Below, one piece after another: positions 2,511-54,358 of a stretch of 64,000 nt of DNA. Position 1 is the first letter of the stretch, and the number at the start of each line of letters is the position of its first letter. A program made the translations under genes and the position numbers. The notes beneath the pieces are model-generated. The model was not told the origin of the DNA. It saw nothing but the letters and a program-made list of their open reading frames with translations, and searched no databases. The stretch covers positions 27,294 through 91,293 of the forward strand of contig CAYOQK010000024.1 in the NCBI GenBank assembly GCA_964406105.1, in the 5' to 3' direction. This DNA is from an uncultured bacterium (GTDB lineage: Bacteria; Hydrothermota; Hydrothermia; WGAB01).

Positions 2511-4349
2511 TCAGCGCAGGATCACCACACGGGCAGTTTGGGCATGGGAACCCGCCTGCACCCGCAGGAAGTACACCCCTGAGGCAATGGCGTTCAGGTC
2601 TATCGGCCAGGTATGTTCTCCTGGCGGTACAGTGCCCCGGAACCAGCGATAAACCCGCCGGCCAGCACCATCGTAGAGATCCACGGTAAGGGCGGTTTGG
2701 GTGGCCACCCGTACCTGCAACCGGGCTTGCCGGTGGATCACCGAAGGCACGCGGAGGCTCAGGGCCGGTGCACTGGAGCCGGACTCAGCCACCTCCACGT
2801 AGATGAACACGAAATCGTCATCACCTCGGGGCTCAATGGTGTATCCGCCGCCCACGTACCGTACCACGCCGGTGACGCCAAGGGTATCGCCCTCATGGGG
2901 CTGGTACGTGTACGCATCGCGGTTGCCCACCCGGGCGATGCCCGAGCCGTCGTCAATTTCAAAGTAGGGGCCGCCTTCGTTGGGGTTCACCACCCAAGCG
3001 GTATCCACCCGTACCAGCACACCTTCGTAGGGCTCACCCCCACCGCCGGGTGCGAGGGTCCCGGTGGAGATGTCCACGGGTTCGGGCAAGGGGTGGCCGC
3101 TGGAAATCACACGGAAGAAGATCACGTCCACGATCTCGGTCATGTGGTAGTACTCGTACACCGAGCCCACCAGGATCACGGAGTCGCCCATCAGGGGTTC
3201 GTGGTCATAGTCGTACACCATGATGCCGGAGAAGGGCCCGCCTTGGGCCTCTTCAATGTAGTACCAGTTGGAGGCCGTGGAATCCACGGTGCAGATGCCG
3301 GAAACCGCCACCCGGCGGCCCACCCAGTTGCTGGTGCCGGTATCGGTGGTATCGCTCTGCAAGGTGACGATGGACACCAAGCCGCCCCAGAACCGCGCGG
3401 AATCCAGAGGCATAGTGTTCCCCGCGGTATCCTGCACGCCGGACACGAGCAGCAGGTACTCTTCACCTGCCGTCATCGGGGTGGTGGCGAGGTGCACCAG
3501 TTTGGGGTTGGCGGCGTCCAAAGTGGCCGAGACCACCGACACCCCGCCCGAGAGGGTGTAGTTTGCCGGGTTCTCGGCTGAGGTTTCCTCTACCGGTGCG
3601 GTGAAGTACACGTATACCGAGTCAAACCCAATGGCAAAGGCCGTGGAGAGGTGCAGCACGTGCACCTGGATGTCATCGTCGGAGCGGGGTTCAATGCGGA
3701 ACAGGCCGTAGTACACCCGCACGGGTCCCCGCACCGTGAGGTGGTCTCCCAGTTGGGGGGTGTAGGTGTAGTTGCCGTTGTTGCGGATGTACACGTAGCC
3801 GGTGCCATCGGTCACCTCCCAGTCGTTGTTGGGCCCGGAGGTGCTGGTGACATACACGCTGGGGAGTTCCACCAGCACGCCTTCGTAAGCCTCGGCCGAG
3901 TCCGGCGGGTACATGCTGGTGGCCGAGGTGTCCAGATAGCCGCAGTAGATCTGGGCGGCCGGGGGAAGCGAATGCCCGCTGGACACGATGATGGCATCGG
4001 AGGCACTGCTGACCTTGATTTCGGTGTTGCCGTAGTATTCGTCCACCTGGCCGGTGATCACCACAGAATCCCCTTTCTCAATGGGCACCACCGCTTGGTT
4101 GCTGGTGAAGTACACCTGGATGCCGGACCAGGGGCCACCATTGGATTCGGCCAGGAAGAACACCCGAGAACCGGCCACTTCACCTACATCGGAGACGGCG
4201 ATGCCGGTGGTGGTGACCACCTGGCCGATGTAGGCCGAGGTGTCCGACCCGGGCAGGCGGTTCCCCTGGATCTCATGGATCGGCACAAACTCCTGGGCCG
4301 CCAGCCACCCAGGCAGCAAAGCCAGCACCCACATCCACCTTTGCATCAT
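2511..4349 (-). CDS. secreted protein with T9SS C-terminal sorting domain and an internally duplicated two-domain module
   Basis: Signal peptide MMQRWMWVLALLPGWLAAQE. C-terminus GVYFLRVQAGSHAQTARVVILR is a typical Por/T9SS CTD. Two copies of an [IxEIQG...YYGNTEI] + [YEGVLV...G.Y.IEPR.DDD] module resemble the N-terminal domains of ExeM/NucH-type extracellular nucleases, but no catalytic domain is present. Confidence 0.7.
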   Translation of the reverse strand: MMQRWMWVLALLPGWLAAQEFVPIHEIQGNRLPGSDTSAYIGQVVTTTGIAVSDVGEVAGSRVFFLAESNGGPWSGIQVYFTSNQAVVPIEKGDSVVITGQVDEYYGNTEIKVSSASDAIIVSSGHSLPPAAQIYCGYLDTSATSMYPPDSAEAYEGVLVELPSVYVTSTSGPNNDWEVTDGTGYVYIRNNGNYTYTPQLGDHLTVRGPVRVYYGLFRIEPRSDDDIQVHVLHLSTAFAIGFDSVYVYFTAPVEETSAENPANYTLSGGVSVVSATLDAANPKLVHLATTPMTAGEEYLLLVSGVQDTAGNTMPLDSARFWGGLVSIVTLQSDTTDTGTSNWVGRRVAVSGICTVDSTASNWYYIEEAQGGPFSGIMVYDYDHEPLMGDSVILVGSVYEYYHMTEIVDVIFFRVISSGHPLPEPVDISTGTLAPGGGGEPYEGVLVRVDTAWVVNPNEGGPYFEIDDGSGIARVGNRDAYTYQPHEGDTLGVTGVVRYVGGGYTIEPRGDDDFVFIYVEVAESGSSAPALSLRVPSVIHRQARLQVRVATQTALTVDLYDGAGRRVYRWFRGTVPPGEHTWPIDLNAIASGVYFLRVQAGSHAQTARVVILR

Positions 4350-4402
4350 CGTTGAACCTCCTTGCTTGTTCTTCAGGTTCGCCGGCCCGATGGCCGGGCC
4401 TT

Positions 4403-5707
4403 TCAGAATCCTACGCCAAACTCTTGCAACACTTGAACGAATACCTGGGCCGCTCGGCCCTGCCCGTTGAGCTTATGCAACGGGAACCCCAAAAACACCA
4501 CCTGGGCAGGTCCACCAGCCGGATACCGCAGCGACACAAAGGCCGCTGACCAGTTGACCAGATCGGGGAACCGATACAACCCTTCGCTCATGGAGTCGGG
4601 AACGAAGCCTGTGATGTGGGACAGGATCGGCACCGAGAGCCACAGGCTGTCGGGATAGGGGGGCACCGAGGTGACCAGAGGCCAGGGAGGCAACAGGAAC
4701 TTGTCCAGCGCCAAGGAATCGGGTTCGGCCACGTGCAGGTAATCTCTGACGAAGTCGTTGACCGTGGCCCCTACCAGCCGTTGGTTGCTCACATAGAGTT
4801 TTCCTCCCTGGTCCAGGAACTGGGCCAAGGCCCCCTGGGCGCCGGTAAAGTGTCCTCCTGAGGCCCCGGCGTACCACAGCAGGACCTCAAATCCCAGATC
4901 GTTGACCACTGCGTTAAGGTCTATGGGGCTGTAGGGCAGCCCCTCTTCCACCCGCCACACGGAATACAGGACGCCCAGGGAATCCAGCACCTGACGATAA
5001 AAGATCCCAGCGGTATCCCCGGGTTCGTCGTCCACCAACAGCACGGAGCCCACCGCAGGCTTCACCACAAAAGTGTCGGCTCGGACCTCGGACAGGGCAC
5101 CGGCATCGTCCAAGGCACGCACATGGAACACCCGCACGCCCGGGGCGAGGTTTCGGAGGGTTACTCGGGTGGTTTCCGCCGAAACGAAATGGGCAAAGGA
5201 ATCGGCATCGGTATCCAGCCACCAGAAGTACCCTTGGATGGTTTCATCGCCATCCTCGTCGTGGCCTTCCCAATAGAAGGTGACCACAGGGAACACCGTG
5301 TCTTGGGGCAAACTGCCCGGCAGGAACATCACCGTGGGAGGCGTATTGACCACCGGCAACGTCAGGGTGGCCGGGGTAGGGTCCAGGGCCCCCTCGTTAT
5401 CCTGGGCCCACACATACACCGTGTGAAACACGGGTTCAGGGCCGGAGGTGAACACAAAGGTGCTGCAATGGGAAGTGGTAAACCCTCGTTGCTGGGTATC
5501 GTCCACTGCCACGAAAAACCCGATCACCTCGCCATCAGGGTCGTTGCCGTACCAGCATAGGTGTTGCCGAGCCCCGGTGGTGTCCACCGTTCCCTCAATG
5601 AACAGATGGGTTTCCGGGGGTTGGTTGGGGACCGGCTCCGGTGCCGGTACCCGCTGGCACGCAAAGGCAAGCACAAGCCCTGCCAAAACAAATCTCAATC
5701 GCTTCAT
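4403..5707 (-). CDS. lipoprotein with repeated WxGxDxDG beta-sandwich-like modules and a C-terminal class-I-GATase/ThuA-like region
   Basis: Lipobox LVLAFAC. Repeats CWYGNDPDGEV... / YWEGHDEDGDETI.... C-terminal VLLVDDEP...LLWYAGASGG...GGKLYVS pattern. Start overlaps the upstream gene by 4 nt. Confidence 0.6.
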   Translation of the reverse strand: MKRLRFVLAGLVLAFACQRVPAPEPVPNQPPETHLFIEGTVDTTGARQHLCWYGNDPDGEVIGFFVAVDDTQQRGFTTSHCSTFVFTSGPEPVFHTVYVWAQDNEGALDPTPATLTLPVVNTPPTVMFLPGSLPQDTVFPVVTFYWEGHDEDGDETIQGYFWWLDTDADSFAHFVSAETTRVTLRNLAPGVRVFHVRALDDAGALSEVRADTFVVKPAVGSVLLVDDEPGDTAGIFYRQVLDSLGVLYSVWRVEEGLPYSPIDLNAVVNDLGFEVLLWYAGASGGHFTGAQGALAQFLDQGGKLYVSNQRLVGATVNDFVRDYLHVAEPDSLALDKFLLPPWPLVTSVPPYPDSLWLSVPILSHITGFVPDSMSEGLYRFPDLVNWSAAFVSLRYPAGGPAQVVFLGFPLHKLNGQGRAAQVFVQVLQEFGVGF

Positions 5708-7518
5708 TTCACGATCAGAAACTTGGTTCGTTTCACCTGTCCCGTGGCGTGGTCCCGAACCACCACGTAGTACAGGCCCGTGGCCACTGGAAACCCGCGG
5801 TCGCTGATCAGGTTCCAGGCTTCCTCGCCGCTATAGGGATCATCGTGCTCCAGGGTTTTCACCAAGTCTCCAGCGAGGTTGTAGATGTAAAGGGTCGCCC
5901 GCTGGGGTAGGTTGTAGAACCGGATCTGGCGGCCATAGGCGCCTGGAGCATCAAACCGCGAGGAAAGGTGATAGGGGTTGGGGTATACGCCGATTTCTCG
6001 GTCTGGCTCGCTGGTGGGCGGGGTGCCAGGCACCACTCGGGTGGCGTTGTTTCTTAGGGCACTTTCCAGCGGTGGGAGGCCGATTTCAGGATCCCCTTGG
6101 TCAAAGGAAGTGACGGCGTACTCGTACACAAACCCGTTCTTCAGGCCGGTATCCTCAAACCGGTACCAGCCGCGATAGGCGCCGGTATCCACCGTGTCCG
6201 GCAGGCCCACGTTAAAGCCCAGGGAATCCACCCGATCAAACTCCTTCAGCAGGATCCAGGTGGTATCTGGCCAGTGTCGTCGGTACACCCGATACCCTTC
6301 AAAGTCCAATTTTCCGGTGCTGGGGTCGGGGGCGGTCTCTGGGCTTCGGTCCCAGTAGAGGGTGGCCCTGTGGTTCCCAGGGATCACCACCAGGCGTGGG
6401 GAAGGCGGAGGACCAGGGAGAACGTAGTGGGCATCGTAGGCCTTCTGGGCCCATCCGGCGTTTTCCAGCAGATGGTCCAATGATTCCCCACCCACAAAGG
6501 CCACCACCAACTGCACCGAATCCTGGTTAGACAACGAAGCAAAGGGGCCCACGGAGATCATGGAAATGGGATCGGGGTAGCCGTGTTCGGCCACGTACTC
6601 ATCATCCACATCTGGATCACGTAGAGTGTCGCTCAGGAGCTGGTAGCGTTGGATGTCCGACACCGAACCGGTCATGTCTTGCCAGGACCACCACTGGAAA
6701 CCCACCTGCAGAGAATCCAGGGGAATTCGGTGGTCATTGAACGCCACCCCCAGGAGTTTGAGCCCAATATACTGGGTGGCCACGGTGTCAAAGCCGTCGT
6801 TCCGCTCGTAAATGAGGTGCAAGGAATCCAGGTACACCAAACGTTTGTGCTGAAAGAAGGGGGTTCGGCCGAACTGGTCGCCCCAGAACTCCCGGTTACC
6901 AGTGACCAATTCGGCGTACATGCCCAAGAAGAGATCCAGGAGCAGCCCCAGGCCCGTGTAGTGAACGGTGTAGGTAACGATTACGAAATCGTCGGCAAAG
7001 GGGTAACTCCAGGCATAACTGCGGAGATCCACCTTCAGGTGCAGCGGGGTGTGGTTGGGTACAGGTTGGAGATCGTCGTAGAAGGTGGCCAAGAAATCCT
7101 CCTCGGAGACGGCCTCAGGTGAGTAGTAGGGAGAGGTCAACAGGCTGGAGCGGATGCGTATGGTGTCGCTATCTGCTGGGGTGGGGTAAAACTCAAAGCC
7201 CTCAGAGCCTGCGGTGGCGCTGGTGGCGTCCACCACGCCGGTGGTCACCAGGGTATCGCCCTCGGTGGTCACCGCACCCACCCAAAGGCCTCCCCGATAC
7301 AGGTGTTCGGTACCCGACCCCCGGGGGTACTCCAAGGAGGGCAAGGGGTCGCCGGTGGCAGGGTCATACACCCGGAACCCGTTGCCCAGCATGCCAAAGT
7401 TGGTAATGGTCAACGACAGGTTGCCCACCCGGGTGTAGTGGGTGATGTCGGTTTTTGCGACCAGAGGGGCCACAACGAGGCCCACTCCGACGAAAACGGG
7501 CCAGAGGCGTCGGATCAC
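5704..7518 (-). CDS. secreted protein with T9SS C-terminal sorting domain
   Basis: 604 aa. N-terminal hydrophobic signal. C-terminus GLYYVVVRDHATGQVKRTKFLIVK matches the T9SS CTD. Has an FN3-like internal region. 4-nt overlaps on both sides indicate operon coupling. Confidence 0.7.
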   Translation of the reverse strand: MIRRLWPVFVGVGLVVAPLVAKTDITHYTRVGNLSLTITNFGMLGNGFRVYDPATGDPLPSLEYPRGSGTEHLYRGGLWVGAVTTEGDTLVTTGVVDATSATAGSEGFEFYPTPADSDTIRIRSSLLTSPYYSPEAVSEEDFLATFYDDLQPVPNHTPLHLKVDLRSYAWSYPFADDFVIVTYTVHYTGLGLLLDLFLGMYAELVTGNREFWGDQFGRTPFFQHKRLVYLDSLHLIYERNDGFDTVATQYIGLKLLGVAFNDHRIPLDSLQVGFQWWSWQDMTGSVSDIQRYQLLSDTLRDPDVDDEYVAEHGYPDPISMISVGPFASLSNQDSVQLVVAFVGGESLDHLLENAGWAQKAYDAHYVLPGPPPSPRLVVIPGNHRATLYWDRSPETAPDPSTGKLDFEGYRVYRRHWPDTTWILLKEFDRVDSLGFNVGLPDTVDTGAYRGWYRFEDTGLKNGFVYEYAVTSFDQGDPEIGLPPLESALRNNATRVVPGTPPTSEPDREIGVYPNPYHLSSRFDAPGAYGRQIRFYNLPQRATLYIYNLAGDLVKTLEHDDPYSGEEAWNLISDRGFPVATGLYYVVVRDHATGQVKRTKFLIVK

Positions 7519-8528
7519 GGTTCACCTCCCTCGCTTCCTGGCCGCACCGGTCGGATGTACTTTTCCAGCCATTCTCCCTGGGGGCTTTGGAAGGCGATGT
7601 ACAGGGTCATGCCGTCGGGGGTGGTGGCACAGGACACCGGCCGGGCCATGGAGTCATCCGGGTGCCGGGTTTCCACGACGAAGGCGCCGGTAGATCCAAA
7701 CTTCTGCACCCGGTGGTTGCCGTAATCGGCCACGTACACCGCCCCGGAGGTGTCCACCGAAACGTCCACGGGCTGCAGGAAATAGCCAGGCAGGGTGTCG
7801 CCCTCGTGTGAGGTTCCGCCCAGGTGCAGGAGATTCACGCGGGGCGTATCCACGGAGATGGCCTCCACCCAGTTGTGGCCGGTGCTGGCGACATACACCG
7901 CTCCCTGGTGGTAAAACAGGCCGCGGGGATCCTCCACGTTGAGGATCCCTGAGCCTGGGCCTGCCAGGGTGTCCAACAGGTTTCCAGAGGTATCACACAC
8001 CAGCACCAGGTCCAGGTTTCGCACCGACAGGTACAGGCGATGCTGATCGTCCACGGTGAGGCCCCCGGGCACCAACTGCTGCCACAGGGTATCGGGCTGG
8101 CCGTTGACGGTATCCACCCGTTGGACCAGCCACCGGTCAATGGCAAAGGCCGCCACAGGGGTACCTCCCAGGGAAAAGCCTCGGATCTCTTGTTGGGCGG
8201 AGTCCACCACCCACAGGGTGAAATCCGGGGCTTGGGCCACCGCCACAGGTGTTTCCAAGCCTTCAAAGGCTACCGAGGACGGGACCCCGTTGGTGAAGAA
8301 CCTGCGGAGCCCTTGCTGATCCACCACGTAAAGAAAGCCGTCTCGTCCCAGGTACAGATCGCGAACCCCCTGCACCTCCAGGGGCACTTCGGGCCAGCCT
8401 TCCACCCGTACATAGGAGGATTCCGGGGGCATTCCGGTGTTCCCCACCGGAGGCAGCGGGTACTTTCGGCCGCACCCCAGCATCAGCAGGGTTGCCCATG
8501 TGATGAGGCCCAGGGTTCCCGTTCTCAT
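7515..8528 (-). CDS. NHL-repeat lipoprotein (six-bladed beta-propeller)
   Basis: Lipobox LMLGCG. Repeated YVAD.GNHRVQKF-type NHL motifs (VYVADYGNHRVQKF, LYLSVRNLD, LYVVDQQ). Confidence 0.65.
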   Translation of the reverse strand: MRTGTLGLITWATLLMLGCGRKYPLPPVGNTGMPPESSYVRVEGWPEVPLEVQGVRDLYLGRDGFLYVVDQQGLRRFFTNGVPSSVAFEGLETPVAVAQAPDFTLWVVDSAQQEIRGFSLGGTPVAAFAIDRWLVQRVDTVNGQPDTLWQQLVPGGLTVDDQHRLYLSVRNLDLVLVCDTSGNLLDTLAGPGSGILNVEDPRGLFYHQGAVYVASTGHNWVEAISVDTPRVNLLHLGGTSHEGDTLPGYFLQPVDVSVDTSGAVYVADYGNHRVQKFGSTGAFVVETRHPDDSMARPVSCATTPDGMTLYIAFQSPQGEWLEKYIRPVRPGSEGGEP

Positions 8529-9523
8529 CTTACCTCCAGGCTGATCCGGTCCACGTCGCCCAGGTATCCCATACCGGTACGGGCGTAATCAAAGGCGATC
8601 TGGTGTCCGCCCACCGACACCCGAACCCCAAAGCCCAGGCTTAGGCCTGAGGGCAGGGTTTCTCTACCTGGTCCTCGGCCGTTCAGTTGGTACCCGGCCC
8701 GAAGGAACAGTTTGTGGGCCACCGTGTATTCGGCTCCCAACCGGAAGGTTTCCATGAAGTCTGAGGGCTTTTCCAGTTGCAGGGCCAGGAGCAACGACCG
8801 CGTTGCGTATCCGGAAACCCCCATGCGATACACCACGGGCAAGGCAAAGGCTTGGTACATGGAGCCATCTTGGGGACGAACATCCGGGCCGATGTTGCTC
8901 AGGGCCACGCCCACTTGGATGCCTCGGTACCCCACATCGTACAGGGTGCCAAGATCCAGCGCCACGCCGAAGGTTCGGGTTACGTAAAGGTCTTCGCCGA
9001 GCACCTTGAGGTTCACTCCGAAGGAAAAGCGATCGCTGATCCGGAGGGCATAGTTCAGGCCAGCGAGGTAATCGCCGTAGCGGAAATACTCGCCGGTGCC
9101 TTCGGGGTGGTACTCGTCGGTCACCCGCATGGGATCGGTGCCCAGGTAGCCCACGAAGAGGCCCCAGGCACTCCCCTGTCGCCAGGGTTGGGCCCAAGCG
9201 ACAAAGGTGTACTGCACATCTACAGGCCACAGAGCGTGCGATGCTCCAGCCACAGGTCCCCTCAGGAAGCCGATCCCTGCGGGATTCCAGTAGGGGGCGG
9301 TCGCGTCGGTAGCCTGGGAAACGTAAGCCCCACCCAAGCCTACGGCCCGTGCGCCCACACCGATCTTGAGGAAGGCGAAGGCGGTGGTTCCCACCTTTTG
9401 GCCTCCCAGGATTTCAAAGAACCCGGCATTCAGGGGTGGGGTAAGGAACCCGATCGCGAGGCAAAGCCCCCACCACCAAGCCCAGAAGTGTTGCCGTGTG
9501 TTGTTTTGCATACCGCTCCTCAA
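8525..9523 (-). CDS. PorV/PorQ-family (FadL-like) outer-membrane beta-barrel protein
   Basis: 332 aa. N-terminal motif FLKIGVGARAVGLGGAYVSQATDATAPYWNPAGIGF resembles the PorV signature (ARAAGMGGA...WNPA). Alternating amphipathic beta-strands throughout. Confidence 0.6.
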   Translation of the reverse strand: MRSGMQNNTRQHFWAWWWGLCLAIGFLTPPLNAGFFEILGGQKVGTTAFAFLKIGVGARAVGLGGAYVSQATDATAPYWNPAGIGFLRGPVAGASHALWPVDVQYTFVAWAQPWRQGSAWGLFVGYLGTDPMRVTDEYHPEGTGEYFRYGDYLAGLNYALRISDRFSFGVNLKVLGEDLYVTRTFGVALDLGTLYDVGYRGIQVGVALSNIGPDVRPQDGSMYQAFALPVVYRMGVSGYATRSLLLALQLEKPSDFMETFRLGAEYTVAHKLFLRAGYQLNGRGPGRETLPSGLSLGFGVRVSVGGHQIAFDYARTGMGYLGDVDRISLEVR

Positions 9524-12129
9524 AAGTTTGCCGACAGGCCGATTTGGACACTTCGGGGTTCCCGATACCGAGCGGGGTTGAGCATCATCTCAGGGGTCGT
9601 GCGGGGCGGCAGCGGATCTCCAGGTTCGTAGGCTCGCCCTGTCACCGGGTTCACGTAGTACACGTTCCGGTGATTGAACAGGTTCCGCACCGACACCTGG
9701 AGGGTCCAGGAGCCGTGGAGCCAGCGGAACCCCTTTCGGAAGGACACATCTACCCGATGCCAAGGGGGTCCCAGCCGAGAGTTCCGCTCTCCGGGGTTGC
9801 CCAGGGTGTCTATTGGGGTATAGCGTCGGCCAGCGCTGTAGGAGGCGTTGACCACCAGTTGCCAGTCGTCGGGCAGGGTCCAGCGGCCGAGCACCGGGTG
9901 TTCGCCTGGGCCCCAGCGATACCCCAGGGTGAGGAACAGTTCGTACGGGCGGTCCCACCGCAGGTACCATTCGCCCAGGCTCTCCTCGGCGCCCACGAAA
10001 TAGAAGTCTTCCTCGGTGGAAGACCGTCCTTTGGCCTGGGACAGGGTCCATTCCAAACGGCCGAACCAATGGCGAAACAGGCGGCGTTCCCACCGCCCCT
10101 CCAGGCCCACGGTGCGCGCATAATCGGCGTTGAAGTACATCCAGTAATCCGGATTCGGAGGGATGCCGGGCACCTTGCGGGCCGTAGGGTAGTTAAAAAT
10201 GTCCTTGTAATACGCCACCAGGGACACCTTGGTGTGATCGTTCAACAGGTGTTCCCAACCGAGCTCATAGGCCACGGTCACCTGGGGTTTGAGGTGGGGA
10301 TTGCCCACCAACTCGTAGGACGAAGAGGCCCGCACCCCCAACTTGGAGTACACGTACTTGAAATCGGGCATTTGGGAAAAATGGCCGTAGGAAAAGAAGA
10401 ACTTGTCCACATCGGTTACAGGGTAAGCAATGCCGATCCTGGGACTAAGGTGACCCTTGTAGCGGTAGCCCAGACGAGGAATCCGAGGGGTTTCGTCCAG
10501 GTACCGCTGGTACTCCTGGGCCACGATGGGGGCCAGATCGCCGGAGGCCAACCCGCGTTCCACCCCTCGGTCCAGGTACCGGCCGGGCACCCAAAAGTCG
10601 TACCGCAGCCCCACGTTGGCCACCATCCCCGCAAAGGTGATCCGATCCTGCAGGTACAAGCCGCCTCTGGTGGTGTACACCCGATACACATCGTGGTTCA
10701 GGCCCAACCCATCGGGGGAGTAGAACCAGGGGTACTGGATATCAATCCACTGGGCCTCGGTGTAGTTCAGGAGGAGGCCCATTTTGGTGGTGTGCACAGC
10801 CCTGGGCATCACGGTCCAGTCGGCCTTCAAGATGTAGCTCTCCACGTAGTGGTCGTGCCAGTACGGTGCATCGCCCGCATCGTAAAAGCCATAGGGCGGG
10901 ACATCGTCCCGCCGCTCCTGGTACTCGCTCCAGTGCTTGCCCTGTACATCCAGGTGGAGGTTGGAGAACACCCGGGAAAGCCGCACCTCGTAAAAGGACC
11001 GGGGAGAAAGCATCTCCTTGTAGGAAAGGATGGCCTGGTTGGAATGTCGGGTGAACACAGGGTAATGGTCCAGGATCTCAATGTAGCGATAAGGAAAGCC
11101 GTAGGCGAAGGGGTAATCGCGTCGGTAGTAAAAGTAGCCTTGATTGATCTCCAACGACTGGGTAAAGGTGAGGTAAAGCTTTCGGCGGTCGTTGGGCGTA
11201 GCTGCCAGTTTGAGGATGGCTGAGAGTTCGTTCTCCTCTCGGGGAGAGAGCCGATCCGTGCCCACCACCGAGGAGTACAAAGGACGGCCCACATGGGGCA
11301 GATAGGTGTCGGTGGTGCGGTAAAACAGGTTGCCGAACACCGTGAGCCGACCCAACAACGGAGCCTTTTGAACCAGGGGGCCGGAGAGCGAAGCGTCCAC
11401 TTGATCGGTGTTAAAGAAACGGAACAGATACGGGTGGTCGGTACGCACCGAGGCCGAGGTGTGCCAGCGGTCACCCCCTTCCCGGATCTCCACCTGGATC
11501 ACGCCCGACATGGCCTCGCCGTGTTCGGCATTGAAGCCTCCCAGCACGGCCTCGTACTCTTGAATCGCCGAGGAGGGGATGTACACCGTAAACGCATTGC
11601 CCGACAGGGGGTCCCGCACTGGAATGCCGTCAATCATCATGACGATCTCGTTGGTGCGGCCGCCCCGGATGTGCACCTCGCGGGTACCGAAACTCACCAC
11701 CCCCGCCTGGGTGCTTAAGGCGGTAACCGCGTTGGTGGCGCCCAGGTTCTCCAGGTCTTGGGAACTGAGGTTGCGCAGGGTTGCGCTCACCTTTTGTTCC
11801 AGCAGGGGGCGTTTGGCGGTCACCACGATCTCCTGTTCCAGGGTGATGGCCTCCTCTTCCAAGTAGAAGTCCAGGGTAACGGGGGTGTTGCCCCGAACCT
11901 CCACGGTGTAGGTTTTATCGGTATAGCCGAGCATGGAGGCCGTGATCCGGTACTTTCCCGGTGGCACATCAGGGATCACATAGGCTCCGTTTTCGTCGGT
12001 GGCCGCCCCCAAAGGAGTGCCTTCCAGGTAAACGTTGGCACCGGGCAGGCCTTTGCCCGTGCGGGCGTCATACACGTGTCCCTGCACGAAGCCACTGACC
12101 AGTACCAGCACAGGCACCCAAGCGAGCAT
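9520..12129 (-). CDS. TonB-dependent receptor with N-terminal carboxypeptidase-regulatory-like domain (SusC-like)
   Basis: 869 aa. Signal peptide, CarbD_reg-like GHVYDARTGKGLPGANVYLEGT...NGAY, plug region (VVTAKRPLLEQ, IRGG), long beta-barrel ending in terminal F (SANF). Confidence 0.85.
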   Translation of the reverse strand: MLAWVPVLVLVSGFVQGHVYDARTGKGLPGANVYLEGTPLGAATDENGAYVIPDVPPGKYRITASMLGYTDKTYTVEVRGNTPVTLDFYLEEEAITLEQEIVVTAKRPLLEQKVSATLRNLSSQDLENLGATNAVTALSTQAGVVSFGTREVHIRGGRTNEIVMMIDGIPVRDPLSGNAFTVYIPSSAIQEYEAVLGGFNAEHGEAMSGVIQVEIREGGDRWHTSASVRTDHPYLFRFFNTDQVDASLSGPLVQKAPLLGRLTVFGNLFYRTTDTYLPHVGRPLYSSVVGTDRLSPREENELSAILKLAATPNDRRKLYLTFTQSLEINQGYFYYRRDYPFAYGFPYRYIEILDHYPVFTRHSNQAILSYKEMLSPRSFYEVRLSRVFSNLHLDVQGKHWSEYQERRDDVPPYGFYDAGDAPYWHDHYVESYILKADWTVMPRAVHTTKMGLLLNYTEAQWIDIQYPWFYSPDGLGLNHDVYRVYTTRGGLYLQDRITFAGMVANVGLRYDFWVPGRYLDRGVERGLASGDLAPIVAQEYQRYLDETPRIPRLGYRYKGHLSPRIGIAYPVTDVDKFFFSYGHFSQMPDFKYVYSKLGVRASSSYELVGNPHLKPQVTVAYELGWEHLLNDHTKVSLVAYYKDIFNYPTARKVPGIPPNPDYWMYFNADYARTVGLEGRWERRLFRHWFGRLEWTLSQAKGRSSTEEDFYFVGAEESLGEWYLRWDRPYELFLTLGYRWGPGEHPVLGRWTLPDDWQLVVNASYSAGRRYTPIDTLGNPGERNSRLGPPWHRVDVSFRKGFRWLHGSWTLQVSVRNLFNHRNVYYVNPVTGRAYEPGDPLPPRTTPEMMLNPARYREPRSVQIGLSANF

Positions 12130-12414: not shown

Positions 12415-14772
12415 ATGCATCACATCCAAAAGGCAGCTGTACTCGGAGCCGGGACCATGGGGAGCCAGATCGCTGCCCACCTCGCCAACATTGGCGTGGA
12501 TGTCCTGCTCCTGGACATCGTGCCGCCCGATGCTCAAGACCCGCAGGATCGCAATCGTTTCCCTCGCTTGGCCCTGCAAAGGCTTCAGAAGTCTCAACCC
12601 CCGGCTTTTTACCACCCTGATTTTGCGGGTCGCATCCGCATCGGGAACTTTGAGGACGATCTCCCCAAGGTCTCGGAGGTGGACTGGATCGTGGAGGCCG
12701 TGGTAGAACGGCTGGACATCAAGCGCGCCCTGTTTGAGCGCGTGGAGCAGTTCCGGACTCCCGGCACCCTGGTGAGCACCAACACCTCCGGGCTCTCGGT
12801 GAATCAGCTGGCCGCAGGGCGGTCCGAGGATTTCCGCCGCCACTTCCTGGGCACCCACTTCTTCAATCCTCCGCGCTTCATGAAGCTCTTGGAACTGGTG
12901 CCCCAGCAAGACACAGACCCCGAGGTGCTTCGGTTCATGGTGGATTTCGGCCGACGCCGGCTGGGAAAAGGTGTGGTGATCGCCAAAGACACCCCCAACT
13001 TCATCGCCAACCGTTTGGGCGTGTTCGGCATCCTGCACACCATCCACACCATGGTGGAAATGGATCTCACCGTGGAGGAGGTGGATGCCATCACGGGACG
13101 AGCCATGGGGCGACCCCGCACCGCCACCTTCCGCACCATAGACCTGGTGGGCTTGGATGTGCTCCTGCACGTTGCCCGCAATGTCTACGAGAACGCACCC
13201 AACGACGAGATGCGAGAGATCTTCAAACCCCCGGAGTTTCTGGAAAAGATGGTGGAACGGGGGCTCCTGGGCGACAAAGCCGGTGGCGGCTTTTACAAGA
13301 AGGAAAACGGTCGCCGCTTGGTGCTGGACTGGAAAACCCTGGAATACCGGGAACGACAGAAGCCGAAGTTCGCCTCGGTGGACACGGCCCTGTTAGAGGA
13401 CACCCCAGAGGCCCGAATCCGGGTACTGCTCCAAGGCAAGGATAAGGCCGCGGAGTTCGCCTGGCGTACGCTCTCGGCCTTCCTGACGTATGCGGCCCGC
13501 CGTATCCCTGAGATCGCCGACGATATCCTCAGCGTGGACAACGCCATCAAATGGGGCTTCAACTTCCGCCTGGGTCCCTTTGAAACCTACGATGCCATCG
13601 GAGTGCGGTGGTTCGTGGAACGGCTGGAACAGGAAGGCCAACCGGTACCTGAACGGGTGCAGGAACTCCTGGACGCAGGGAAAGACCGGTTTTACCTGCA
13701 AGAACCCACCCGTCGGCTGTACTTTGACTTCACCCGCAAAGACCACGTCCCCGAGGAACTGCCCGAAGGGGTTATCGTGCTGGAATACCTGAAGGCAGAG
13801 GGCCGCGAAGTTCTGGCGAATCCCGAGGCCAGCCTCATTGACCTGGGCGATGGCGTCGCCCTGCTGGAGTTCCACACCAAAGCCAATGCCTTGGGTCCAG
13901 GCACCATCCAGATGATCTTTGACAGCCTGGAAAAGGTCCGCAGCGACTTTGACGCCTTGGTGCTGGGCAACCGAGGCCGCCACTTCTCCGCGGGCGCAAA
14001 CCTGGCGTTGATCCTGCAGGCCATCGCCGAGGAGGAATGGGACGAACTGGACTACATGGTGCGGCGGTTCCAGCAGGCGGCTATGGCGCTCAAGTACTTT
14101 GAGAAGCCCGTGGTGGCCGCACCCTTTGGACGGGTACTCGGTGGAGGCACGGAGATCACCATGCACACCCACCGGGCCCAGGCGGCCGCCGAGACCTACA
14201 TGGGGCTGGTGGAGGTGGCCGTAGGCCTGCTGCCTGCAGGCGGTGGCACCAAGGAAACCCTGATCCGCTTTACCCAGGACATCATGGCAATCCCAGATGC
14301 CGATCCCTACCCCTTCCTGCGGGAGGCCCTGACCCAGATCGGGATGGCTAAGGTGTCCATGAGCGCCTACGAGGCCCAACAGATGCGGTACCTGCGGCCC
14401 GGCGACGGTGTAACGATCAACGACGATTTCCTGCTGCACGACGCCAAACAGGTGGCTTTAGAGATGGCTCGTACGGGGTTCACACCGCCCACCCCGAAGA
14501 AGATCAAGGTCACCGGTGAATCCGGCTTTGCGTATCTCCAGATGCTCATCTACAACCTGCTGGAGGGCAAACAGATCACTGAGCACGATGCCTTTATCGT
14601 CACCCAGATCGCTCGGGTACTCACCGGAGGCTCTGTTCCTTACGGCACCGAGCTCACGGAGCAGGATCTGCTGGATTTGGAGCGTGAGGCCTTCCTGCGG
14701 CTCTGTGGCACAGAGAAAACGCAGCAGCGCATCATCCACATGCTCAACACCGGCAAACCCCTCCGCAACTAA
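12415..14772 (+). CDS. fadN: 3-hydroxyacyl-CoA dehydrogenase / enoyl-CoA hydratase fusion (FadN-type)
   Basis: 785 aa. N-terminal Rossmann [14 protein letters not shown] (HAD NAD-binding), C-terminal crotonase fold ([17 protein letters not shown]). Followed by thiolase and ACAD as in the B. subtilis fadN-fadA-fadE operon. Confidence 0.85.
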
Positions 14773-14786
14773 CAGGAGGAACCATC

Positions 14787-15962
14787 ATGAGACAGGCCGT
14801 TTTGGCTTTTCCCGTGCGCACCCCGGTGGGCAAAGCACCCCGGGGCAGTTTGAAGGACACCCGGCCCGACGAACTGGCGGCCCTTGTGATCCGCGAAGTG
14901 GTCCGCCGGTCGGGCATTGACCCCCAGGAAGTGGACGACGTGATCCTGGGGTGCGCCTTCCCCGAGGCCGAACAGGGGATGAACGTGGCTCGGGTGGCCC
15001 TGATCCGGGCCGGCTTGCCGAACTCCGTGCCCGGAATGACCGTCAACCGGTTCTGCTCCTCTGGGCTTCAGGCGATCGCTATCGCTGCAGAACGCGTGAT
15101 GGTGGGGGCCGCAGATCTCATCATCGCCGGAGGCGTGGAGTCCATGAGCCGCGTGCCCATGGGCGGCTTCCGCTCCTCTCCCAACCCGTACCTGATGGAG
15201 CACTACCCCCAACTCTACATGGCCATGGGGCTTACCGCTGAGCGGGTGGCGGAAAAGTACGGCATTTCACGCGAGGACCAGGACCGCTTCGGATACGAGA
15301 GCCACATGAAGGCGGCCCGCGCGATCCGCGAGGGCAAGTTTCAGGAAGAGATCGTTCCCGTTCACACCCGCGTGATCCGTCGCACCGAGGACGGCGAGCA
15401 AGTGGTGCAGGAGATCACCTTGGAGGTGGACGAGGGGGTACGGTTTGACACCAGTTTGGAGAAAATGGCCCGATTGAAACCCGTGTTCAAACAGGGGGGA
15501 ACCGTCACTGCAGGCAATTCCTCGCAAATGAGCGATGGAGCAGCGGCGGTGCTCGTGATGTCGGAGGAGAAGGCCAAAAGCCTGGGCATTGAACCCATGG
15601 CGTACTTCCGTGGATACGCCGTGGCAGGCGTGCCTCCCGAGATCATGGGCATCGGCCCGGTGGAGGCCGTGCCAAAGGTGCTACGCCTTACCGGCGTACG
15701 CCTGGAAGACCTGGATCTCATTGAGCTGAACGAGGCCTTTGCCGCCCAATCCTTGGCCGTCATTCGGGAATTGAACCTGCCCTACGAAAAGGTGAACGTG
15801 AACGGTGGCGCCATTGCCTTGGGCCACCCCCTGGGCTGCACGGGCGCCAAACTCACCGCTACCCTGCTCTATGAGATGAAGCGCCGAGATGCCACCTTGG
15901 GCCTGGTGACCATGTGCATCGGCGGCGGCATGGGCGCCGCTGGCATCTTTGAACGCCGTTAA
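14787..15962 (+). CDS. fadA: acetyl-CoA C-acyltransferase (thiolase)
   Basis: 391 aa. Active-site Cys context [12 protein letters not shown]-terminal GGGMG motif region. Confidence 0.9.
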
Positions 15963-15976
15963 CCGGAGGGAAAACC

Positions 15977-17749
15977 ATGGCACAGGATACCCCGCTGTAC
16001 AAAAAGGGCGGAGGCTTTCTGCTGGCCGATACCCCGGCCGAGGAGATGTTCACCCCCGAGGAGTTCACCGAAGAGCAACGGATGTTTGCCCAGGCCGCAG
16101 ACGAGTTCATGGAAAAGGAGGTGCTCCCCAAAAACGAACAGATTGAAAAGCAGGACTTTGACCTGCTTCGTTACCTGATGAAGAAGGCTGGGGAACTGGG
16201 CCTGCTGGCGGTGGACATCCCGGAGAAGTACGGAGGCCTGGGGCTGGACAAGGTGTCTTCCATGCTCATCGCCGAGCGCATGGCCAAACAGGGGTCTTTC
16301 AGCGTAACCTGGGGCGCCCACACCGGCATCGGTACCCTGCCCATCGTGTTTTTCGGCACTGAAGAACAGCGGCAAAAGTACCTGCCGGGCCTGGCCTCTG
16401 CCGACATCATCGGGGCCTATGCCCTCACCGAACCCGGGGCAGGCACAGATGCCATGAACATCAAAACCCGGGCCGTTCTCTCGGACGATGGCAAGTCGTA
16501 CATTCTCAACGGCAGCAAACAGTTCATCACCAATGCGGCCATCGCCGATCTCTTCACGGTCTTTGCCAAGATTGACGGCGAGAAGTTCACGGCCTTTCTG
16601 GTGGAACGGGATACCCCGGGCCTGGAACTGGGCGCCGAGGAAAAGAAACTGGGCATCAAGGGATCCAGCACCCGAAGCCTGACCTTCAACAACGTCAAGG
16701 TGCCCGTGGAGAACGTGGTGGGCGAGATCGGCAAAGGACACCACATTGCCTTCGGCATCCTCAACATCGGGCGATACAAACTGGGCGTGGGCTCCGTAGG
16801 AGCAGCCAAGGAGGCTCTGAAGGTAGCGGTGAACTACGCCAAAGAGCGGGTGCAATTCGGCCAACCCATTGCCAACTTCGGCCTGATCCAAGAAAAGATC
16901 GCCCACATGACCACCCGCATCTTCGTTACCGAAACCATGGCGTACCGCTTGGCCGGGCTCCTGGACGAAGCCATGAAGGGCCTGGATCCCAACGCACCGG
17001 ACTACACCCAGAAGTCCTGGAATGCCGTGGCGGAGTATGCGGTGGAGTGCTCCATCCTCAAGGTGTACGGCTCCGAGATGCTGGACTACGTGGTGGACGA
17101 AACCGTACAGATCTTCGGAGGCTACGGCTACACCCAGGAGTACCCCGCAGAGCAGTACTACCGGGATTCACGGATCAATCGGATCTTTGAGGGCACCAAC
17201 GAGATCAACCGCATCCTGATCCCCGGGATGCTCATGCGGCGGGCCCTGAAGGGCCTGATCCCACTGGTCCCCGTAGCGGCCAAAACCGCCAAAGAGACCC
17301 TCACCCTAATGCCCACCATGATGCCGCGGCCCGAGGGGCCGTTTTCCAATGAGAAGTTCGCTCTGCAGATGGCCAAACGGATCGCCCTCACCCTGGCTGC
17401 GGTGGCAGCCGACAAGTTCAAAGAGGCCCTGCGTCAGGAGCAAGAGGTGCTCGCCGGTCTGGCGGATATCGTCACCGAGGTGTATGCCCTGGAAAGCATC
17501 CTCCTGCGTGCCCTCAAGTCGGGCCACCGTTTGATGGCCTCCATGGTAGAGATGTACACCTACGAGGCCATGAAGCGCATAGAGCTCCGGGCCTACGAGA
17601 TCCTGCCGTACATGAGCGAGGGCGACGAGCTCCGCACCCTGATCTCCACCGTCCGAAAACTGGTTCGGCCCTTTAGCCCGCCGAACCTCATCCAAAAAAG
17701 GAGGGAGATCGCCCGCACGGTCATTGACCAGGGCAAGTATCCCTTCTAA
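15977..17749 (+). CDS. fadE: acyl-CoA dehydrogenase (long form with C-terminal extension)
   Basis: 590 aa. ACAD N-terminal, middle and C-terminal domain motifs (YALTEPGAGTDA, GGYGYTQEYP...RDSRINRIFEGTNEI). Confidence 0.85.
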   Translation: MAQDTPLYKKGGGFLLADTPAEEMFTPEEFTEEQRMFAQAADEFMEKEVLPKNEQIEKQDFDLLRYLMKKAGELGLLAVDIPEKYGGLGLDKVSSMLIAERMAKQGSFSVTWGAHTGIGTLPIVFFGTEEQRQKYLPGLASADIIGAYALTEPGAGTDAMNIKTRAVLSDDGKSYILNGSKQFITNAAIADLFTVFAKIDGEKFTAFLVERDTPGLELGAEEKKLGIKGSSTRSLTFNNVKVPVENVVGEIGKGHHIAFGILNIGRYKLGVGSVGAAKEALKVAVNYAKERVQFGQPIANFGLIQEKIAHMTTRIFVTETMAYRLAGLLDEAMKGLDPNAPDYTQKSWNAVAEYAVECSILKVYGSEMLDYVVDETVQIFGGYGYTQEYPAEQYYRDSRINRIFEGTNEINRILIPGMLMRRALKGLIPLVPVAAKTAKETLTLMPTMMPRPEGPFSNEKFALQMAKRIALTLAAVAADKFKEALRQEQEVLAGLADIVTEVYALESILLRALKSGHRLMASMVEMYTYEAMKRIELRAYEILPYMSEGDELRTLISTVRKLVRPFSPPNLIQKRREIARTVIDQGKYPF

Positions 17750-17763
17750 AAGGAGGGCCCATC

Positions 17764-19449
17764 ATGGATCGGCCCTGGTATGCCCATTACGATCAAGGGG
17801 TTCCTCGGAGCATTGAGTACCCCCGGGTTCCCCTTACGGAGCTCGTGGAACGGGCAGCCCGAAAGTACCCGAACAACGTTGCCTTTTCCTTCTTTGGCGT
17901 AGAGCAAACCTACCACGAGTTCATTGCCCAGGTGCATCGCTTTGCTGCCGCCCTCTATGACCTGGGGATCCGCAAAGGCGATCGCGTTTCCCTGATGCTG
18001 CCCAACTCGCCCCAGTTCCTGATCGCCTTTTACGGTGCCCTCAAAATCGGTGCCACGGTGGTACAAACGAACCCCCTGTACATGCCCTACGAGTTGGAAC
18101 ACATCCTGAACGATTCGGGCACCGAGACCATCGTGGCTCTGCATGTTTTCCATCCCCGCATTGAGGCGGTGCGCAGCAAAACCCCCTTGCGCCGCATCAT
18201 TTACACCTGCCTTGCCGAGTACCTGCCCTGGTGGATGAAGCCCCTGTACCGGTTGCGGCTCTTAGCGAAACGACAAACCCTCCGTGTACCCCGAGGTGCC
18301 GGCATCTATCGCTTCCAAGAACTCCTGCGCTCGGCTTCTCCCACTCCTCCCCAGGTGGACATTGACCCGATGGAAGACGTGGCGTTGTTCCAATACACCG
18401 GGGGCACTACGGGCACACCCAAGGCCGCCATGCTCACCCACTTCAACCTGGTGGCCAACACCTATCAAACCATCACCTGGGACACCATGATGGAGGAGGG
18501 CCACGAGGTGGTCATGGGTGCCCTGCCCTTCTTCCACGTGTACGGCATGACCGTGGCCATGAACCTGGCGATGGTGTCGGGTAGCAAACTGGTGCTGGTT
18601 CCCAAGTTTGAAGTCAAACAGGTGGTCAAACTCCTGGAGAAACATCGCGTGACCCTTTTTCCCGGTGCCCCCACCATGTACATCGCCGTGATCAACATGC
18701 CAGGGGTAGAAAAGCACGACCTGTCGTCCATCAAGGTGTGCATCTCGGGCTCTGCTCCCCTGCCTGTGAAGGTCAAGGAGGACTTTGAACGCCTCACAGG
18801 GGCCAAACTGGTGGAAGGCTATGGCCTGTCGGAGGCCTCTCCTGTGACCCACTGCAATCCCATTCTGGGGGTCAACAAGGCCGGCAGCATCGGGTTGCCG
18901 TTCCCGGACACCGACGCCAAGATCGTGGACCCGGAAACCGGCGAACGTGAGATGCCTGTGGGCGAACCGGGTGAGCTGGTGGTCCGCGGCCCTCAGGTCA
19001 TGAAGGGCTATTGGAACCGCCCCGAGGAAACCGCCCTGACCCTCCGTGACGGGTGGCTACACACCGGAGACATCGCCCGGATGGACGAAGAGGGCTACTT
19101 TTACATCGTGGACCGCAAGAAGGACATGATCCTGGCCTCAGGGTTCAACATCTATCCTCGGGAGGTGGAGGAGGTCCTGTTCCGACACCCTAAGGTTAAG
19201 GAAGTGGCGGTCATCGGGGTACCTCATCCTTACCGCGGGGAAACGGTCAAGGCCTTCGTGGTTCCCAAGGAGGGTGAAACCCTCACCGCCGAGGAGATCA
19301 TCCAGTTCTGCCGCCAAAACATGGCGAAGTTCAAGTGCCCCACGGAGGTGGAATTCCGCACGGAGCTGCCCAAGACCTTCGTGGGCAAGGTGCTCCGACG
19401 CGTATTGCGGGAAGAGGAATTGAAGAAACGCGGCCAGGAATCCGCTTAA
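17764..19449 (+). CDS. fadD: long-chain-fatty-acid--CoA ligase
   Basis: 561 aa. AMP-binding motif YTGGTTGTPKAAMLTH, GYGLSE, and C-terminal motif K in the KTFVGKVLRRVLREE region. Confidence 0.88.
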   Translation: MDRPWYAHYDQGVPRSIEYPRVPLTELVERAARKYPNNVAFSFFGVEQTYHEFIAQVHRFAAALYDLGIRKGDRVSLMLPNSPQFLIAFYGALKIGATVVQTNPLYMPYELEHILNDSGTETIVALHVFHPRIEAVRSKTPLRRIIYTCLAEYLPWWMKPLYRLRLLAKRQTLRVPRGAGIYRFQELLRSASPTPPQVDIDPMEDVALFQYTGGTTGTPKAAMLTHFNLVANTYQTITWDTMMEEGHEVVMGALPFFHVYGMTVAMNLAMVSGSKLVLVPKFEVKQVVKLLEKHRVTLFPGAPTMYIAVINMPGVEKHDLSSIKVCISGSAPLPVKVKEDFERLTGAKLVEGYGLSEASPVTHCNPILGVNKAGSIGLPFPDTDAKIVDPETGEREMPVGEPGELVVRGPQVMKGYWNRPEETALTLRDGWLHTGDIARMDEEGYFYIVDRKKDMILASGFNIYPREVEEVLFRHPKVKEVAVIGVPHPYRGETVKAFVVPKEGETLTAEEIIQFCRQNMAKFKCPTEVEFRTELPKTFVGKVLRRVLREEELKKRGQESA

Positions 19450-53660: not shown

Positions 53661-54358
53661 TCCCCCTCCTGGACTTCGTGGCCCCACCGGTGTGCTTGGT
53701 GTGTGGGGCCCCGGTAGAGGACCCCGACCAGCCTCCTCTGGTATGCGAGGCGTGCCGTCGGCAAATCTACAGGCTGAAGATCCAGATCCCCTTCTGCCGC
53801 CGCTGCGGTACCCCACTTCGGGGACGGCAATGTCCCCGGTGCCATGGCAAGCGCCTACCCTTTGATCGGGCCAGGGCAGCCTATCTTTACACCGGCCCGG
53901 TGGCACACCTGGTGGAGGCGATGAAATACCACGGCTTCCGCTCTCTGAGCCGCTGGATGGCCCACGAGATCGCCGCTGCACTGCCCAGCGATCCCGCCCA
54001 GATCCACGGGATCGTTCCCATCCCTCTGCATCCGGCTCGGGTGCGGGAACGGGGGTTTTCCCAAACGCAGGAATTGGCCCAACACTTGGCCGAAGCCACA
54101 GGCTTGCCGGTGGTTCCCCTGCTACGCAGGGTCCGGTACACCCGCAGCCAAACCACCTTAAGCCCGGAGGAAAGACGAGAAAACCTGCGAGGTGCCTTTG
54201 CACTCCAGGCCCCACCCCAGGCCGTGCAGGAACGAACTTGGCTTTTGGTGGACGATGTGATGACCTCTATGACCACGGTCAAGGAGGCCTCCCGGGTGCT
54301 TCGCCAGGCGGGCGCTCAAAGGATCCTTGTGGCCCTGTTTGCCTTGGCCCCGGCTTAG
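53639..54358 (+). CDS. comF: ComF family protein (double zinc ribbon + phosphoribosyltransferase domain)
   Basis: N-terminal CLVCG...CEACRR...CRRCG...CPRCHG Cys clusters. PRTase motif LLVDDVMTSMTTVKEA. ATG at 53639 chosen; the first 168 codons of the ORF-track 53135 frame overlap lgt and are rejected. Confidence 0.75.
   Translation: MGWPRFLIPLLDFVAPPVCLVCGAPVEDPDQPPLVCEACRRQIYRLKIQIPFCRRCGTPLRGRQCPRCHGKRLPFDRARAAYLYTGPVAHLVEAMKYHGFRSLSRWMAHEIAAALPSDPAQIHGIVPIPLHPARVRERGFSQTQELAQHLAEATGLPVVPLLRRVRYTRSQTTLSPEERRENLRGAFALQAPPQAVQERTWLLVDDVMTSMTTVKEASRVLRQAGAQRILVALFALAPA

Follow-up and report, generated by a model that had tools for sequence, protein, structure and literature searches.

Transport of DNA across the outer membrane (OM) of Bacteroidota and of the wider Fibrobacterota-Chlorobiota-Bacteroidota (FCB) superphylum has been addressed in one genetic study on Riemerella (2021, PMC8459023) and for one DNA-utilisation locus of Bacteroides (2025, PMC12478041), and both systems centre on a DUF5689 protein and an OM barrel carrying a CarboxypepD_reg domain. 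In Riemerella anatipestifer, RA0C_RS04920 (DUF5689+DUF5017) and the adjacent CarboxypepD_reg OM protein RA0C_RS04915 are both essential for natural transformation (PMC8459023). In Bacteroides thetaiotaomicron, the ddbABCDEF locus is essential for DNA depletion, and DdbD (WP_048698952.1), whose annotated domain is DUF5689, was proposed to act as the substrate- or DNA-binding partner of the TonB-dependent transporter DdbC (WP_008762511.1), based on an AlphaFold3 complex and on the similarity to p202 bound to double-stranded DNA (dsDNA) (PMC12478041). Here we analysed a gene of an uncultured bacterium of the Hydrothermota, located at positions 2511..4349 (-) of a 64,000-nt stretch of DNA (assembly GCA_964406105.1, contig CAYOQK010000024.1, forward-strand positions 27,294 to 91,293; the whole stretch is referred to as the window), which constitutes an intact open reading frame (ORF) of 612 aa with an ATG start. 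Its product, hereafter the target, carries a type IX secretion system (T9SS) sorting tail and two modules, each of which is predicted to fold into a pair of oligonucleotide/oligosaccharide-binding (OB) barrels.

A second set of described relatives comprises the extracellular nucleases ExeM, NucH, Xds and SpnA. Deletion of the OB region abolishes the nuclease activity of ExeM (PMC6085458) and Xds (PMC6746945), and the lamin-tail domain (LTD) is dispensable in both. The cryo-EM structure 9SF8 of Streptococcus pyogenes nuclease A (SpnA) resolves a chain composed of OB3, OB4 and the nuclease domain, and according to its authors OB2-4 are required for DNA binding in catalysis (PMC13601614).

Our analysis revealed that the target is a non-catalytic relative of both groups and a fixed member of a six-gene OM cluster that is conserved over several phyla. 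We estimate a probability of roughly 45% that it serves as the surface ligand-capture arm of the transporter encoded in this cluster, with extracellular nucleic acid, probably dsDNA, as the likeliest ligand.

Domain architecture and selection

BLASTP comparison of aa 1-250 with aa 300-612 of the target returned 37% identity over 193 aa (E=3e-34), far above chance similarity, which bears out the tandem duplication that a sequence-only reading of the window had proposed. All motifs quoted in that reading were located in the first copy, module A (IHEIQG 24-29, GQVVTTTG 42-49, YYGNTEI 105-111, YEGVLV 155-160, VTDGTG 179-184 and IEPRSDDD 219-226). The equivalents in the first half of module B have all diverged (IVTLQS 326-331, GRRVAVSG 344-351, YYHMTEI 400-406), and those in the second half read YEGVLV (441-446), IDDGSG (465-470) and IEPRGDDD (505-512). 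As each of the 48 aligned homologs has retained both modules, even at 28% identity, the duplication must be considered ancient.

AlphaFold2 modelling with the 48-sequence alignment gave a mean pLDDT of 90.9 for the whole protein, and module A modelled alone reached a pLDDT of 95 and a pTM of 0.90. Each module is predicted to consist of two closed five-stranded barrels, which superpose on known OB folds. The proposed Ig-like domain between the modules was likewise recovered, by an all-beta prediction and by a Big_5 match that is weak and lies under the gathering score (Table 1).

Assignment as a T9SS cargo was corroborated by TIGR04183, which matches aa 545-610 with 27.9 bits (cutoff 23), and by PF18962 (Por_Secre_tail), which stays under its gathering score of 27 on the target itself (23.7 bits) and matches 44 of the 48 homologs. 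The annotated parts of the window hold further proteins with a C-terminal sorting domain (CTD) as well as a PorV/PorQ-family gene. The CTD of the target is basic (pI 11.6). At the other end of the protein, Gln19 is the expected mature N-terminus, and Gln occupies position +1 in at least 90% of the 48 homologs; this fits the 'Q-rule' of Bacteroidetes, i.e. the N-terminal pyroglutamate found on exported proteins.

Comparison with an 87%-identical ortholog yielded a dN/dS of 0.11 overall and of 0.07 in each module, with the lowest value in the Ig domain (0.025) and 0.33 in the CTD. In total, 680 homologs of the target were found, and in other phyla the protein is conserved over its full length even where identity falls to about 25%. 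Purifying selection acts on the gene, which is functional.

Table 1 Features of the target gene and its cluster in the window, in order of position.
Feature	Position	Strand	Basis
T9SS type-A C-terminal sorting domain, aa 527-612	2514..2771	-	TIGR04183; PF18962 in homologs
Flexible, low-confidence linker, aa 516-526	2772..2804	-	only segment with pLDDT <50 is aa 520-526
Module B, second tandem-OB (DUF5689-like), aa 323-515	2805..3383	-	A-like strand pattern in AlphaFold2 model
Ig-like spacer, aa 232-322	3384..3656	-	Pfam Big_5, E=9e-4, 20.3 bits; AlphaFold2 all-beta
Module A, second OB fold, aa 126-231 (AEAYEGVLV...VTDGTG...IEPRSDDD)	3657..3974	-	five-strand barrel in AlphaFold2 model
Module A, first OB fold, aa 20-125 (IHEIQG...GQVVTTTG...EYYGNTEI)	3975..4292	-	
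Putative signal peptide, aa 1-18	4296..4349	-	sequence reading (hydrophobic N-terminus); expected cleavage LAA/QEF; AlphaFold2 helix aa 2-16
Shine-Dalgarno AAGGAGG	4357..4363	-	7 nt 5' of target ATG; sequence reading
g434, probable lipoprotein, 434 aa, LAFAC lipobox, function unassigned	4403..5707	-	synteny with target
g604, secreted protein, 604 aa, PorZ-like/type-B-like CTD	5704..7518	-	profile match to 5m11_A, E=1.3e-4; NCBIfam PorZ C-terminus
NHL-repeat probable lipoprotein, 337 aa, LMLGC lipobox	7515..8528	-	Pfam NHL, E=1e-12
PorV/PorQ-family OM beta-barrel, 332 aa	8525..9523	-	NF033709, 172 bits (cutoff 90)
TonB-dependent-transporter-like OM protein, 869 aa, CarboxypepD_reg + Plug + barrel	9520..12129	-	Pfam and NCBIfam TonB families

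Relation to nuclease OB pairs and DUF5689

Profile searches revealed that the modules are homologous to the substrate-binding N-terminus of ExeM/NucH-type nucleases, as the sequence-only reading had anticipated. The whole target matched the NCBIfam family ExeM_NucH_DNase (NF033681) in two stretches (E=8e-16, 58 bits against a cutoff of 300), and the single modules did so individually (A, E=8.7e-10; B, E=2.4e-6), both at profile positions ~34-117 of 546; module A additionally matched positions 198-317 of the 884-position ExeM profile. While the whole target as a single sequence found no match in the PDB, a profile built from 29 module sequences retrieved SpnA (9sf8_A, E=2e-8), with profile positions 4-165 aligning to chain residues 3-182, i.e. 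to the OB3-OB4 stretch, and with the start of the second OB fold of module A aligned to the ESMEGMLV segment. The homologous OB pairs of the target and of ExeM, NucH, Xds and SpnA (NF033681, NF033680; 9SF8) have the motifs IxEIQ, GDxVxVxGxVxE[YF]xGxT[ED] and E..EGxLV in common, and the invariant acidic residues within EY..TE and E..EG.LV are common to the modules and SpnA.

These nucleases are also extracellular and, like the target module, acidic. The target differs from them in that it lacks the EEP catalytic domain and the LTD, carries the module twice, and ends in a T9SS CTD instead of a GlyGly-CTERM or LPXTG anchor. The absence of a nuclease domain was thus confirmed: Pfam, NCBIfam and PDB sequence searches of the target detected no catalytic domain, including no match to PF03372 or PF19580, and none of the 120 best homologs contained an EEP domain. 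Lacking the catalytic domain, the target falls outside the ExeM/NucH family. An LTD, for which a profile search had been suggested, was not present in the target. The alternative that the domains would resolve as generic carbohydrate-binding modules unrelated to nuclease N-termini was also considered, and neither the domain list nor the Foldseek list of the target contained a carbohydrate-binding module.

The link to DUF5689 (PF18942, a 217-position profile with a gathering score of 28.6 bits) comes through homologs. Residues 22-232 of one homolog (P0042) match profile positions 2-217 with 32.6 bits, and a second (P0048) matches end to end with 35.4 bits, both above the gathering score; the two proteins align to 96-100% of the target with 39-40% identity. 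Altogether, 10 of 48 family members matched DUF5689 at E<=0.01. By transitive homology, the module would therefore correspond to Pfam DUF5689. In an 853-aa T9SS cargo of a Balneolaceae genome (L057, OZ252011.1), an Ig domain is followed by DUF5689 (319-478), Exo_endo_phos (499-677) and the CTD, and this order directly identifies DUF5689 as the OB pair in front of the EEP domain. The gene of this cargo adjoins that of a receptor with CarboxypepD_reg, Plug and TonB-barrel domains (L057:9095-14062), and the locus resembles a minimal 'nuclease plus transporter' pair outside Bacteroidales.

Foldseek searches with a single module returned tandem-OB binders of dsDNA or single-stranded DNA, namely Teb1 and the HIN domains of p204, p202, IFI16 and AIM2, as well as the single-stranded DNA-binding protein SSB; all listed structural neighbours were OB-fold proteins and nearly all of them nucleic-acid binders. 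The full-length model gave generic multi-beta-domain matches only (TM<=0.25), which included S-layer proteins and PorZ. The likeness to the HIN-200 proteins (p202, p204, AIM2, IFI16) and other tandem-OB DNA binders, the top Foldseek matches, lies in two consecutive OB barrels. In contrast to this likeness, there is no sequence similarity to HIN-200 proteins, and TM-scores reach only 0.3-0.4, because the interdomain geometry differs.

To assess how widespread the module is, 1.84 billion representative sequences were searched exhaustively with the module profile, which returned 13,873 proteins at E<=0.001, of which 1,546 passed E<=1e-30, and 2-7 matched stretches per protein were frequent; a search of a 5.8-billion word-indexed database yielded only 22 short proteins. 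Among 272 fetched relatives, 146 contained two full modules and 107 three or more, so that tandem duplication appears to be ordinary for this superfamily. Co-occurring Pfam domains, counted in a sample of 45 of the best matches, included T9SS tails (15 proteins), DUF5689 (10), LTD (5), EEP nuclease (2), PLDc_2 (1) and DUF5017 (1). Proteins of ~300 aa composed of one module and a CTD occur in metagenome-assembled genomes (MAGs) of Bacteroidota/Flavobacteriales (L035, L041, L043, L045, L046, L049; P0126-P0131), and a larger Bacteroidota protein of this layout (L044) comprises 561 aa. The surroundings of these genes (L035, L041, L043-L046, L049) were checked for DdbCD-like loci, and no relative of the cluster transporter was found near them.

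Conservation of the gene cluster

The target gene closes a compact run of six genes read in one direction (Table 1), with 4-nt overlaps at three junctions. The TonB-dependent-transporter-like gene with CarboxypepD_reg, Plug and barrel regions belongs to the same conserved cluster and lies four genes away from the target. Between g434 and the target, a gap of 53 nt holds the strong Shine-Dalgarno sequence and a 6-bp GC hairpin (CCGGCC-ATCG-GGCCGG, window 4382-4397 (-)) without a T-run, which is situated between the g434 stop codon and the ribosome-binding site of the target. Neither a sigma-70-like promoter nor an excess of terminator-like sites over shuffled sequence was found.

The best genome matches were MAGs of candidate division WOR-3/Hydrothermae, whose phylum is now named Caldifarciminota in the NCBI taxonomy. 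All six genes occur in the same order in nine WOR-3/Hydrothermae loci (L003, L014, L018-L022, L058 and the window), further WOR-3 loci show the portion of the cluster that their contig ends allow, and one (L030) has a rotated order. Outside this phylum, five loci of distant FCB-group genomes were examined (L065-L069, from Calditrichota, Zixibacteria, Zhuqueibacterota, a Bacteroidota-labelled MAG and one further MAG), and the cluster was present in all five, in the order g604, two-module T9SS protein, g434-like gene, transporter and PorV/Q-like gene. Relative to WOR-3, the target and g434 are swapped and the order is rotated. In four of the five loci the PorV/Q-like gene is followed by an NHL-like gene, either immediately or after one intervening gene, and the Zixibacteria stretch stops just past the PorV-like gene. 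Transporter orthologs in these loci are 35-42% identical over ~900 aa, and PorV/PorQ-like orthologs 33-38%.

In four of the five distant loci, a local hmmsearch with the module profile located two complete modules in the second gene. In the fifth, from Zixibacteria SM23_81 (L068:11944-13938, LJUY01000009.1), 2 kb without a called gene in the public annotation contain a homolog collinear with the target (E=2e-38; 28% identity over 678 aligned positions). Directly downstream of the cluster in another distant locus (L067:20728-21968, GCA_036781665.1), a 766-aa protein with one OB module, PLDc_2 and a T9SS tail is encoded, possibly a secreted nuclease of the PLD type.

Conservation within the cluster is highest for g604, with ~130 invariant positions across 8 orthologs. 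Its 957 detectable homologs belong to FCB phyla, and full-length homologs with 33-42% identity occur in Zixibacteria, Eisenbacteria, Ignavibacteria, KSB1, Calditrichota, Zhuqueibacterota and Bacteroidota; the few with a source name are called hypothetical. The body of g604 had no Pfam or PDB match, and only its CTD resembles a known protein, PorZ (5m11_A); this CTD is closer to PorZ and CHU_C than to type-A tails. Together with the PorV/PorQ-family gene located two genes upstream, g604 may form a PorQ-PorZ-like pairing. For g434, no confident Pfam or PDB match was obtained. No description of the six-gene cluster was found in the literature searched.

Other parts of the window hold a fatty-acid beta-oxidation operon (12415-19449 (+)), which is divergent from the cluster and comprises genes for a fused 3-hydroxyacyl-CoA dehydrogenase/enoyl-CoA hydratase, for thiolase and acyl-CoA dehydrogenase, and for an AMP-dependent ligase. 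A tricorn-like protease of 1012 aa (PD40, PDZ and Peptidase_S41; 54355-57393 (-)) adjoins a protein of 1662 aa (57499-62487 (+)) that, apart from a weak T9SS tail, had no Pfam match. The competence genes ComEC, DprA and ComF were not seen in the annotated parts of the window.

Discussion

Both core components of the only known DNA-uptake systems of Bacteroidota are mirrored in the cluster, within a larger six-gene set. The target and DdbD share the DUF5689-type tandem-OB module, the HIN-type predicted fold and a six-gene locus with a TonB-dependent transporter. However, DdbD is described as DUF5689 only, its gene lies next to that of the transporter, and the other extracellular ddb proteins are lipoproteins (PMC12478041), whereas the target comprises two modules, an Ig spacer, a Sec signal and a T9SS CTD, and its gene is separated from that of the transporter. 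The PorV/Q-like, NHL, g604 and g434 genes have no described counterparts in the ddb locus, and the phylum also differs. Substrate-binding partners of Bacteroidales are usually surface lipoproteins with an SPII signal; the target lacks a lipobox cysteine and has an SPI-type signal and a T9SS CTD instead. As it is neither a lipoprotein nor transporter-adjacent, and as its locus contains no nucleases, the target does not fit the DdbD type and shares its module only. Similarly, RA0C_RS04920 and RA0C_RS04915 resemble the present cluster in the genetic pairing of a DUF5689 protein with an OM beta-barrel that bears an N-terminal carboxypeptidase-regulatory-like domain, but the target lacks DUF5017/choice-of-anchor J, has two modules and a T9SS tail, and its gene is not adjacent to that of the barrel.

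From this comparison we infer a working model in which the target would be exported via Sec and then the T9SS, and displayed at the cell surface as four non-catalytic OB folds, arranged as two DUF5689-type modules spaced by the Ig-like domain. There it would hold extracellular DNA, which would then be passed to the TonB-dependent transporter, either directly or after being cut by a nuclease encoded elsewhere. The idea of DNA binding or uptake, voiced in the sequence-only reading for a surface-anchored protein, is strengthened by the finding that the module corresponds, by transitive homology, to the DUF5689 of DdbD and RA0C_RS04920 and that a transporter belongs to the same conserved cluster.

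Several observations weigh against this model. The mature target has a net charge of -38 and 3 lysines only, its modules have a pI of about 4.1-4.3, and across 669 modules in the 272 relatives the median pI was 4.05, with none above pI 7 and a median net charge of -19 per ~200 aa. Nearly all conserved charged residues of the module are Asp or Glu, and E104, E110, D140, E153, E156 and D226 are among the invariant ones; conserved basic positions are few, namely Arg62 and Arg222 (module A) and Arg345, Arg497 and Arg508 (module B), of which only the Arg of the PR motif (Arg222, Arg508) is invariant, while Arg62, Arg345 and Arg497 are mostly basic among homologs. Such uniform acidity is unexpected for a presumed DNA binder. 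Judged from its composition, the surface chemistry of the module would be unlike the DNA-binding surfaces of HIN or RPA, and HIN-200 proteins bind DNA via basic surfaces, in contrast to the strongly acidic target module. The window protein itself did not match DUF5689 at E<=0.1. The ddb locus encodes three nucleases, whereas no nuclease domain was recognised in the six cluster genes or their annotated flanks. Homologs of the target also occur outside the cluster (L005, L011, L016, L017, L028), those of L011, L016 and L028, all WOR-3, with housekeeping neighbours only. Several WOR-3/Stahlbacteria MAGs contain two double-OB copies (L004/L033, L006/L036, L023/L034, L012/L048, L024/L047), in at least two cases with one copy linked to the cluster and the second on another contig, and the roles of such paralogous copies may differ. 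In the 45-protein sample, CBM_4_9 (2), CBM96 (1) and dockerin (2) domains co-occurred with the module, and the PorQ-like and PorZ-like features of the cluster leave room for a T9SS-related surface complex.

The acidity is the chief counter-argument to DNA as the ligand. The target could be a capture arm for the transporter and yet bind a polysaccharide, a cationic polymer or peptide, or a metal or mineral surface, with the OB pair acting as a generic extracellular binder; the OB fold alone leaves the ligand unfixed, the extreme acidity extends to the conserved charged residues, related proteins carry CBM_4_9, CBM96, CBM_56-like and dockerin domains, and the WOR-3 cluster is devoid of a nuclease. 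We nevertheless regard this as a possible but rather unlikely explanation, as the module is linked to the OB pairs of EEP DNases, and to DUF5689 proteins implicated in DNA uptake, by homology at the sequence level and not by fold alone, and the structural neighbours are nearly exclusively nucleic-acid binders. Moreover, the SpnA DNase is acidic as well in its homologous OB3-OB4 stretch (net charge -10, pI 4.6), and acidity was therefore not taken as a disproof of DNA binding. Since ExeM activity was assayed in buffer with Mg2+ and Ca2+ (PMC6085458) and the SpnA segment is acidic, cation-bridged binding of DNA by an acidic module is conceivable.

A different role would follow if the cluster encoded a T9SS-related surface-attachment or OM biogenesis complex analogous to PorQ-PorZ, of which the target would be a structural or coat part, or a co-regulated major cargo, without capturing a ligand. 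The presence of a PorV/PorQ-family gene (172 bits), the PorZ-like CTD of g604, the housekeeping-like conservation of the cluster and g604 over many FCB phyla, and the S-layer and PorZ matches of the full-length model, at low TM-scores, fit such a complex. It is unlikely, however, given that the complete, plug-bearing transporter-like protein suggests import, that the OB modules are strongly constrained (dN/dS 0.07), and that their conserved motifs are common to nuclease OB pairs. Still less probable is a function as in-trans cofactor or scaffold of a separately encoded secreted nuclease, to which the target would lend the OB pair on which ExeM, Xds and SpnA depend in cis. ExeM and Xds do lose their nuclease activity without the OB region, and T9SS-secreted nucleases with the same module exist (the EEP protein of L057 and, putatively, the PLDc_2 protein of L067), but no partner nuclease is encoded in or beside the WOR-3 cluster and the conserved genetic partner is a transporter. 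Trans-complementation by free OB pairs has, to our knowledge, no precedent. Finally, retention of a nuclease-type OB pair without the EEP domain could indicate a decayed, currently functionless remnant of an ExeM/NucH-type nuclease. This pseudogene reading was rejected and is effectively refuted by the conservation and selection data, i.e. the intact ORF, the 680 homologs with full-length conservation to ~25% identity, the dN/dS of 0.11 and the conserved synteny.

If the target is indeed a DNA-capturing arm of the transporter, the cluster as a whole might represent an ancient, FCB-superphylum-wide OM DNA importer, in which a T9SS-delivered tandem-OB protein captures DNA for a TonB-powered channel and of which the DdbCD and Riemerella systems would be reduced, lipoprotein-based derivatives, although this wider scenario is at present doubtful.

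What distinguishes the present locus is that the DUF5689 part is delivered by the T9SS, is duplicated, and is fixed in an unannotated OM cluster across several phyla, and it is this fixed membership that gives the finding weight. Should the ligand not be DNA, the cluster would still constitute a conserved, unannotated OM system, including g604 with its ~1000 homologs, of which the 120 best carry neither an informative name nor a precomputed Pfam domain. Should the ligand be DNA, the target would provide a soluble, nuclease-free DUF5689 protein that is easily expressed for binding studies, the cluster would establish a functional link between T9SS cargo and TonB-dependent import, and a widespread route for extracellular DNA scavenging or gene uptake would exist in as-yet-uncultured phyla of sediments and hot springs.

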